Shown: piece by piece, positions 10,550 through 11,016 of the stretch | How positions within the stretch are numbered: position 1 is the stretch's first letter | Layout of the letters: each line of letters opens with the position of its first letter | NCBI RefSeq assembly: GCF_009789555.1 | Contig: NZ_CP046902.1 | Location: 4,168,856-4,192,855 of the forward strand | From: Stutzerimonas stutzeri | Lineage (GTDB): Bacteria; Pseudomonadota; Gammaproteobacteria; Pseudomonadales; Pseudomonadaceae | Length of the DNA stretch: 24,000 nt | Direction: 5' to 3' | Made by a program: the position numbers and the translations under genes | Notes under the pieces: model-generated | What the model was told of the DNA's origin: nothing | The model's input: only the letters and a program-made list of their open reading frames with translations | The model's database searches: none

Positions 10550-11016
10550 ATGAACGCGCAATGGATTGCCCGCCAATCGCCCGTGCCGCTGCTCCCGGCA
10601 GCGCTAACCAGCCCCGCCCTCCACGCTGCCGGACCCTCGGTCTGCATGACCTGGCCGCAAGCGAGTTCGCGTCGAGCCAGGCCCACCCTCTCGCAACGCC
10701 CGTGGCGACCGCCTCCACCGGTGACACCCTCGCGCGTCCGCCAGTCGGGAGCCGCCAGAGGAGCGATGTCGAACAGATCGGCCACGCGCTTGAGGCCTTT
10801 AGCGCCCAGAGCCGCCATGGACACGAAGCATTCATCGTGCAGCACGGCGCTTACCACCAGAGATTGATTGTCCAGTCCGGAGCCGACGACCAGGCCCGTA
10901 TTGAACAGGACGGCGCGCACAACGACGCGTTGATCGAACAGACCGGCACCGGGCATAGCAGTCGCGTCACGCAGCATGGCCAGGGTCTGAGTGTACGGGT
11001 ACGCCTGTACCACTGA
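10550..11016 (+). pseudogene. csgB: CsgB-like minor curlin (nucleator), apparently frameshifted
   Basis: The frame of ATG 10550 gives a Sec-like leader MNAQWIARQSPVPLLPAALTSPALHA-AG and then R/P/S-rich junk. The frame of ORF 10543..11016 has no leader. It carries GLHDLAASEFASS (compare E. coli CsgB mature N-terminus GYDLANSEYNFA) and about 4-5 curlin units, ...FIVQHGAYHQRLIVQSGADDQARIEQDGAHNDALIEQTGTGHSSRVTQHGQGLSVRVRLYH. Confidence 0.65.

Follow-up and report, generated by a model that had tools for sequence, protein, structure and literature searches.

The window analysed here, a stretch of 24 000 nucleotides (nt) of Stutzerimonas stutzeri contig NZ_CP046902.1, contains a curli locus that lies wholly on the + strand and in which csgD, csgE, csgF, csgG, csgB and csgA follow one another in collinear order (8144–12338; list of open reading frames (ORFs) and Pfam matches). 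We were concerned with csgB, the gene for the curli nucleator, which is found directly upstream of csgA in a locus holding csgE, csgF and csgG (each with Pfam support). Its leader and its curlin-repeat body are read in two different frames, and the analysis led us to regard it as very probably a genuine pseudogene, fixed in the lineage, from which no functional nucleator is made.

The leader frame opens at ATG 10550 (a Shine–Dalgarno-like AGGGA is present 7 nt upstream) with MNAQWIARQSPVPLLPAALTSPALHAAGPS. The segment 10550–10633 (+ strand, M1–G28) aligns with the leaders of 11 intact orthologues and corresponds to the ancestral csgB start and Sec-type leader; the signal-peptidase site presumably follows ALHA (A26, 10625–10627). 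Beyond the leader the frame is Arg/Pro/Ser-rich as far as the TGA at 10865–10867, and the ORF from the native ATG (10550–10867, + strand, 105 amino acids in the ORF list) comprises the leader and 75 out-of-frame residues. No homologue was found for this out-of-frame tail; among related proteins only those of the P0002 type, described below, read that frame, as a scrambled segment. The body frame is one base behind the leader frame. It is that of ORF 10543–11016 (+ strand), which begins MKDERAMDCPPIARAAAPGSANQPRPPRCRTLGLHDLAASEFASS… and carries GLHDLAASEFASS and the curlin repeats. The csgB body proper (10648–11016, + strand), with a DLAASEF N-terminal motif, curlin repeats (Pfam Curlin_rpt) and the native stop, is unlinked from the leader. 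Gene callers give the body-frame ORF as a 157 amino acid product, with a 151 amino acid version from ATG 10561, and a cluster look-up found the 157 and 151 amino acid products in NCBI, ENA and Logan.

The body frame matched Pfam PF07012 (Curlin_rpt) with E = 1.4e-10 and 41.3 bits (cut-off 20.7). The NCBIfam CsgB equivalog NF007506 gave E = 4e-12 and 46–47 bits, below its curated cut-off of 165; this is probably because the model is an enterobacterial one, from which these proteins are distant (P0004, an intact orthologue, is 34% identical to E. coli CsgB). In a BLASTP comparison with E. coli K-12 CsgB, GLHDLAASEF aligned with AGYDLANSEY at the start of the mature protein. A tblastn search of the window with an intact orthologue returned two high-scoring segment pairs, residues 1–57 being matched in the leader frame and residues 35–157 in the body frame. 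An alternative leader in the body frame was considered and rejected: the N-terminus MKDERAMDCPPIARAAAPGS… lacks a hydrophobic core and is merely a shifted reading of the old leader, with a best 11-residue Kyte–Doolittle mean of 0.45 versus 1.7–2.5 in real leaders. The repeats of the window csgB thus lack an in-frame Sec signal peptide, which those of the 11 orthologues have. A preliminary description of this DNA had called the gene a csgB-like nucleator, placed its leader and repeats in separate frames, matched the body segment to the mature N-terminus of E. coli CsgB and denied ORF 10543 a signal peptide. The identity was confirmed by PF07012, the homologue search and the E. coli alignment, and the split by the ORF list, the divided tblastn match and the 11 single-ORF orthologues; the two remaining claims agree with the GLHDLAASEF/AGYDLANSEY pairing and the Kyte–Doolittle scan.

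Homologues were searched for with the conceptually joined leader and body protein as query. Ten intact homologues were found at 49–61% identity (S. stutzeri, related Pseudomonas and metagenome contigs); all ten are single ORFs, with N-termini that match the leader-frame peptide of the window and following residues that match its body-frame peptide. Of the 14 loci found by a genome scan, 11 have an intact csgB, and the intact CsgB set consisted of proteins P0003–P0012 and loci L004–L014. The orthologue consensus reads MxxAQRIARxALLPLxxAALxSPALQAAG...S.DLAPSE.AS, and the window body is 52–60% identical to the orthologue bodies. The intact CsgB of S. stutzeri and related Pseudomonas are true orthologues; they share the csgDEFG-BA locus and the layout of leader and repeats, and are 55–61% identical to the repaired window protein. 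The two-frame split is more than a chance juxtaposition, as leader and body share a single frame in 11 orthologues. The arrangement that the preliminary description had held out as an innocent explanation, orthologues with the same two frames, another start and a working leader ahead of the repeats, was not found among them, as they are single ORFs.

Codon alignment located the lesion. The last leader Gly codon (Gly28, GGA) occupies 10631–10633, and the Asp codon (GAC) of the DLAxSE motif of the body occupies 10648–10650. The interval between the two (10634–10647, + strand) measures 14 nt in the window and 15 nt, or five codons, in 11 of 11 intact Stutzerimonas/Pseudomonas orthologues; therefore, one base is missing. 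By comparison with L008 (GTC TCA CTC), the lost base was most likely within tgcat (10643–10647), and the best-fitting repair would be gtc t[c]g cat, which gives PSVSHDLA and brings back an otherwise invariant Ser. A one-base loss had been proposed before, with the frames joined between 10628 and 10639; the loss stands, and the join is now placed slightly downstream, in 10634–10647. The repair then suggested, an extra G in tcg-gtc, is compatible with the alignment, yet gtc t[c]g cat fits the orthologues best. The earlier remark that no long homopolymer is present was correct: the sole run of at least four identical bases in 10540–10760 is CCCC at 10612, away from the junction.

Assembly errors most often take the form of a lone missing base, and this csgB had been called as an ordinary coding sequence (CDS); if the loss were an error of sequencing or assembly, the true genome would have a 15-nt junction and an intact csgB. 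Eleven related assemblies (L001–L003 and L018–L025) from at least 10 different sample accessions were fetched. The 14-nt junction was common to the window and all 11 of them, that is, to assemblies from different pipelines (ENA MEGAHIT-style contigs, Logan) in addition to the NCBI genome of the window, and the 12 sequences formed five haplotypes, differing at 10571, 10664, 10712, 10821 and 10899. The body-frame protein cluster was found on 25 contigs (NCBI, ENA and Logan), the window's own contig among them. The junction is without a homopolymer, and an error would leave unexplained both the neutral evolution of the body and the degraded leader that are described below. Because the same deletion is carried by 12 sequences in five haplotypes, it is not a sequencing error, a reading to which we attach next to no probability. 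The deletion is fixed in the window lineage, lineage-wide. Of the three readings offered at the outset (error, deletion and recoding), the evidence picks the genuine inactivating 1-nt deletion, and the proposal that re-sequencing might restore a single ORF is answered by independent assemblies that keep the split.

The gene also bears the marks of lost selection. In a Tajima-type relative-rate test, with the window compared with the csgB-intact L005 and L011 as outgroup, CsgB had 43 unique changes in the window versus 4 in L005 (P = 3e-9). The other proteins of the locus were symmetric in the same test (CsgA 33 versus 29, CsgD 12 versus 9, CsgE 8 versus 5, CsgF 4 versus 5 and CsgG 4 versus 4), and the picture for CsgB was unchanged with other choices of sister and outgroup. 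Whereas the intact Stutzerimonas CsgB are single ORFs under purifying selection, the window copy is frameshifted and its protein has evolved ∼10 times faster. Window-specific nucleotide change in csgB amounted to 0.24, 0.17 and 0.24 at codon positions 1, 2 and 3, respectively, against 0.17–0.22 at third positions and 0.01–0.11 at first and second positions of the five neighbouring genes; intact csgB orthologues display the usual third-position excess. Since csgB changes equally at all codon positions and at the third-position rate of its neighbours, it is drifting at about the neutral rate, and has done so over about the whole branch leading to the window lineage.

The residues affected point the same way. 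Of the 63 columns that are invariant in the 11 intact orthologues, 11 were changed in the window csgB (10 with the Ser-restoring repair), compared with 11 of 727 invariant columns in CsgD, CsgE, CsgF, CsgG and CsgA (Fisher P = 1e-7). Two G-to-R and two N-to-D replacements are among them, as are N to H, Q to P and Q to L, and all fall within repeat motifs. The leader itself has the lowest hydrophobic core of 14 sequences (1.45 versus 1.67–2.50) and four prolines, where intact orthologues have none to two; it retains one basic residue, which is lost as well in the L002/L003 haplotype. Within the lineage, csgG polymorphism consisted of 15 synonymous and 1 non-synonymous differences and csgA polymorphism of 8 synonymous and 10 non-synonymous ones, the latter being roughly the long-term csgA ratio. 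No stop or frameshift was found in csgA of eight close relatives.

One sub-lineage carries a second change. In L001 (a 685-kb metagenome contig, with csgB at 6001–6468), the CCC run at 10727–10729 (+ strand) is CCCC in the DNA alignment, a second-site +1 change by which the leader frame is rejoined to the body frame. The resulting ORF of 155 amino acids (protein P0002) consists of the leader, 32 scrambled residues replacing the DLAxSE segment, and then the repeats, and translation ends no longer at 10867 but at the native stop, which lies 48 nt ahead of csgA. L001 shares the A to G change at 10664 with L018–L025 and adds 10712 C to G and the inserted C; its haplotype is derived within the lineage and, therefore, the deletion preceded the insertion. 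Selection may have favoured the insertion because it allows the repeats to be exported, or because it lets ribosomes run on to the native stop near csgA, and the altered termination site could affect polarity on csgA. It could equally be a chance event, a single compensating indel being not improbable.

Restoration of an ORF with leader and repeats by a second indel, in a CCC run, raises the idea of a reversible contingency locus, with the window state as OFF and the L001-type 155 amino acid ORF as ON. However, the run is of 3–4 C only, far below known phase-variable tracts, and no long simple-sequence tract was found at the sites of frame change (CCC at most at the junction, CCC/CCCC at the compensating site). 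One state is shared by 11 of the 12 sequences (among them the window), the restored product is scrambled over 32 residues where the conserved DLAxSE segment belongs, and neutral evolution speaks against a maintained function. We therefore hold such switching to be very unlikely.

Several points weigh against simple decay of csgB. Over 165 codons the body frame has stayed open, and for a neutral divergence of ∼20% its indels are rather few: a single frameshift plus one or two short in-frame deletions. The frame restoration in L001 might be a sign that some selection for an exported product persists. Finally, a second csgB-like gene might conceivably lie elsewhere in the 4.68-Mb genome, although none appeared in the homologue search or in the window (where tblastn with an intact orthologue matched csgB and csgA only). 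As regards the open frame, neutral substitution was simulated from the orthologue consensus with the observed number and spectrum of changes, and the frame remained free of stops in 13–15% of runs. Selection holding the body ORF open was rejected as a candidate on this ground (simulated P of no stop = 0.13–0.15, not significant); therefore, no selection need be invoked for it.

The same open frame, which annotation pipelines call, could also mean that the leaderless protein of 151 or 157 amino acids is functional in the cytoplasm or in some other role outside the Sec pathway, or that the gene is under positive diversifying selection, which too can give fast protein evolution. Equal change at the three codon positions, at the synonymous-like rate of the neighbouring genes, is nonetheless the neutral expectation, and an open frame of such length is expected by chance often enough (P ∼ 0.13–0.15). 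In addition, the native ribosome-binding geometry suits ATG 10550 and not 10543, and the N-terminus of the body ORF is an out-of-frame reading of the old leader. A function or positive selection of this sort is accordingly given very little credence.

Recoding was the remaining possibility: programmed -1 ribosomal frameshifting or transcriptional slippage would join the frames, and a functional secreted CsgB would still be made. Both frames are open across the junction, the shift needed to join leader to body is -1, and the body frame is without a stop codon. No slippery heptamer of the form X_XXY_YYZ was present in the leader frame (10550–10867), however, and a scan of 10540–10760 revealed no homopolymer of at least four bases at the junction, where the longest run is CCC. 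Folding of the 91 nt at 10640–10730 gave -30 kcal/mol, no better than shuffled sequences (z = -0.50), and the downstream structure is thus unremarkable. A conserved two-frame layout with selection on the downstream frame was likewise not found: no orthologue has the layout (each is a single ORF), and the downstream frame evolves neutrally, with conserved Gly, Asn and Gln residues of the repeats lost. The C inserted in L001 would moreover break the frame of any product shifted at the junction. A recoded functional gene would stay constrained; since the body frame is neutral, this is not such a gene. The recoding reading of the split, left open by the preliminary description, was not borne out by any signal or by the behaviour of the body frame, and we judge it highly improbable.

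Inactivation of csgB is not confined to the window lineage but occurs also in two related species-level genomes. S. stutzeri CLN100 (L015, 3940–4417) has a csgB with one frameshift, after PTQTES, at a site differing from that of the window, and Pseudomonas sp. Q2-TVG4-2 (L016, 4001–4505) has a csgB with two frameshifts at other sites. Rate acceleration specific to csgB was detected in both (20 versus 3 in L015 and 29 versus 5 in L016; relative-rate test). A same-length close relative of the truncated L016 product (same 90% cluster) was found on a separate Logan contig; the L015 frameshift was not confirmed in a second assembly, its exact truncated product being absent from the protein collection. 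All three lineages with a broken csgB have kept csgA (424 amino acids) and csgDEFG intact. For the window lineage and L016, the csgA and csgDEFG rates are as in csgB-intact relatives; the L015 comparison is less clean, as its csgF looks mosaic. At least three separate losses of csgB are seen in this Stutzerimonas/Pseudomonas group (window lineage, L015 and L016), each through frameshifts at different sites.

The genes around csgB are those expected of a curli locus. The first is a csgD-like LuxR/GerE regulator (8144–8800, + strand; Pfam GerE, E = 2.4e-16) with 80–88% identity to its orthologues, followed by csgE (8797–9180, + strand; Pfam CsgE, E = 4.8e-36), csgF (9177–9599, + strand; Pfam CsgF, E = 5.4e-30) and csgG (9623–10459, + strand; Pfam CsgG, E = 5.8e-77), which encodes an intact and strongly constrained outer-membrane channel. 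The csgD/csgE and csgE/csgF boundaries are 4-nt overlaps (ATGA), which suggests translational coupling of these pairs. Downstream of csgB, csgA (11064–12338, + strand) encodes a many-repeat major curlin of 424 amino acids with its own leader (Pfam Curlin_rpt on 10 stretches, E = 1.4e-41). No csgC or csgH was present 3' of csgA in the window ORF list; the next gene encodes a convergent hybrid sensor kinase of 757 amino acids (12484–14757, - strand; PAS/HisKA/HATPase/REC, from the ORF list). A scan of 10300–12600 for promoters and terminators yielded nothing informative, its sole match being a weak promoter-like one that overlaps the start of csgA. An antisense ORF of 196 amino acids (10456–11046, - strand) covers the entire csgB region, and there are further long alternative-frame ORFs across the G+C-rich locus; these, like the antisense ORF, are most likely compositional artefacts.

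Some variation among relatives concerns csgA and csgF. The size and type of csgA vary: L014 (4427–5173) encodes a CsgA of 248 amino acids that is 32% identical to that of the window, and the L005 csgA (4530–5933) aligns with the window csgA over 468 columns. This variation fits the known plasticity of CsgA repeat number. CsgF falls into two allelic classes, 65–69% and 79–93% identical to that of the window, in a comparison of L010–L013 with L004–L009 and L014–L016 (at ∼2500–3050 in each locus). The L015 csgF belongs to another class than the L015 csgA (4 versus 26 in the relative-rate test), a mismatch which suggests that the curli locus holds recombination mosaics.

The course of events that we favour, decay of csgB after a single deletion, can be outlined as follows. 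The ancestor would have had a normal csgB directly upstream of csgA, in which Sec leader, DLAxSE-type N-terminal segment and curlin repeats shared a single frame. A nucleotide was then lost from the five-codon stretch that separates the leader from the conserved Asp (10634–10647), and we take this deletion itself, not some earlier event, to be the inactivating step. Ribosomes starting at ATG 10550 would produce the leader and 75 out-of-frame residues before stopping at 10867, and the curlin-repeat body would be readable only from the leaderless starts 10543 or 10561. A body product without a leader could therefore not reach the periplasm or the CsgG channel and would stay in the cytoplasm, and secreted CsgB is presumably absent as far as the window csgB is concerned. 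After inactivation, csgB has drifted over roughly the whole branch separating this lineage from its nearest sampled relatives, while csgD, csgE, csgF, csgG and csgA were kept under purifying selection. In E. coli csgB mutants, CsgA is still exported via CsgG and is largely soluble or polymerises on the CsgB of other cells. By analogy, CsgA of the window lineage would be exported through CsgG and would be mostly soluble or polymerise on CsgB of neighbours.

Compared with known curli systems, the Stutzerimonas orthologues resemble E. coli and Salmonella CsgB in having a Sec leader and a length of about 155–158 amino acids, and the likeness extends to the curlin repeats, the position directly upstream of csgA and the DLAxSE[FY] N-terminal motif. 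The window gene, in contrast, is 28% identical to E. coli CsgB, has its leader out of frame and has lost conserved repeat residues. The loci differ as well: E. coli has two divergent operons (csgDEFG and csgBAC), whereas the window has a collinear csgDEFG-BA arrangement without csgC. Pseudogenes among curli genes are well known from host-adapted enterobacteria, in csgG and csgA of Shigella (PMC6854044), and curli are impaired in invasive Salmonella (PMC6611641). There too, a small lesion inactivates a csg gene and the rest of the locus persists. In the window it is the nucleator csgB that is hit, in a Stutzerimonas/Pseudomonas lineage from the environment; constraint persists on the secretion genes and csgA, and the loss has recurred independently in related lineages. 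On these comparisons the window gene is to be classed as a Stutzerimonas csgB orthologue whose repeats lack an in-frame leader and, hence, as a csgB pseudogene and not a gene for a CsgB protein.

For annotation, this means that the CDS of 151/157 amino acids, recorded as a normal one, is a leaderless csgB remnant and is due for a pseudogene flag. A frameshifted adhesin-type gene alone would be ordinary; the specialist interest is in the recurrent loss of the nucleator with csgA kept and in the compensating frameshift, and the locus offers a clean case of nucleator decay beside a constrained major subunit, secretion channel and regulator. According to Dueholm et al. 2012 (PMC3521004), the repeats of CsgB are as a rule more conserved than those of CsgA, and a CsgA with an expanded set of repeats might form fibrils with no need of a nucleator. 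It is possible, though on balance unlikely, that curli are built without a nucleator here, either because the long CsgA seeds itself or because CsgA is a shared secreted good that polymerises on CsgB of neighbours; in that event the inserted C of L001 might have been selected for its effect on csgA, by translational coupling or anti-polarity, and not for CsgB function. Lineages that have lost csgB are natural candidates for testing the idea of nucleator-free fibrillation (PMC3521004). If the strains still make curli, CsgB would be dispensable for a repeat-expanded CsgA; if they export soluble CsgA, this would suggest that cells share in the building of fibres.
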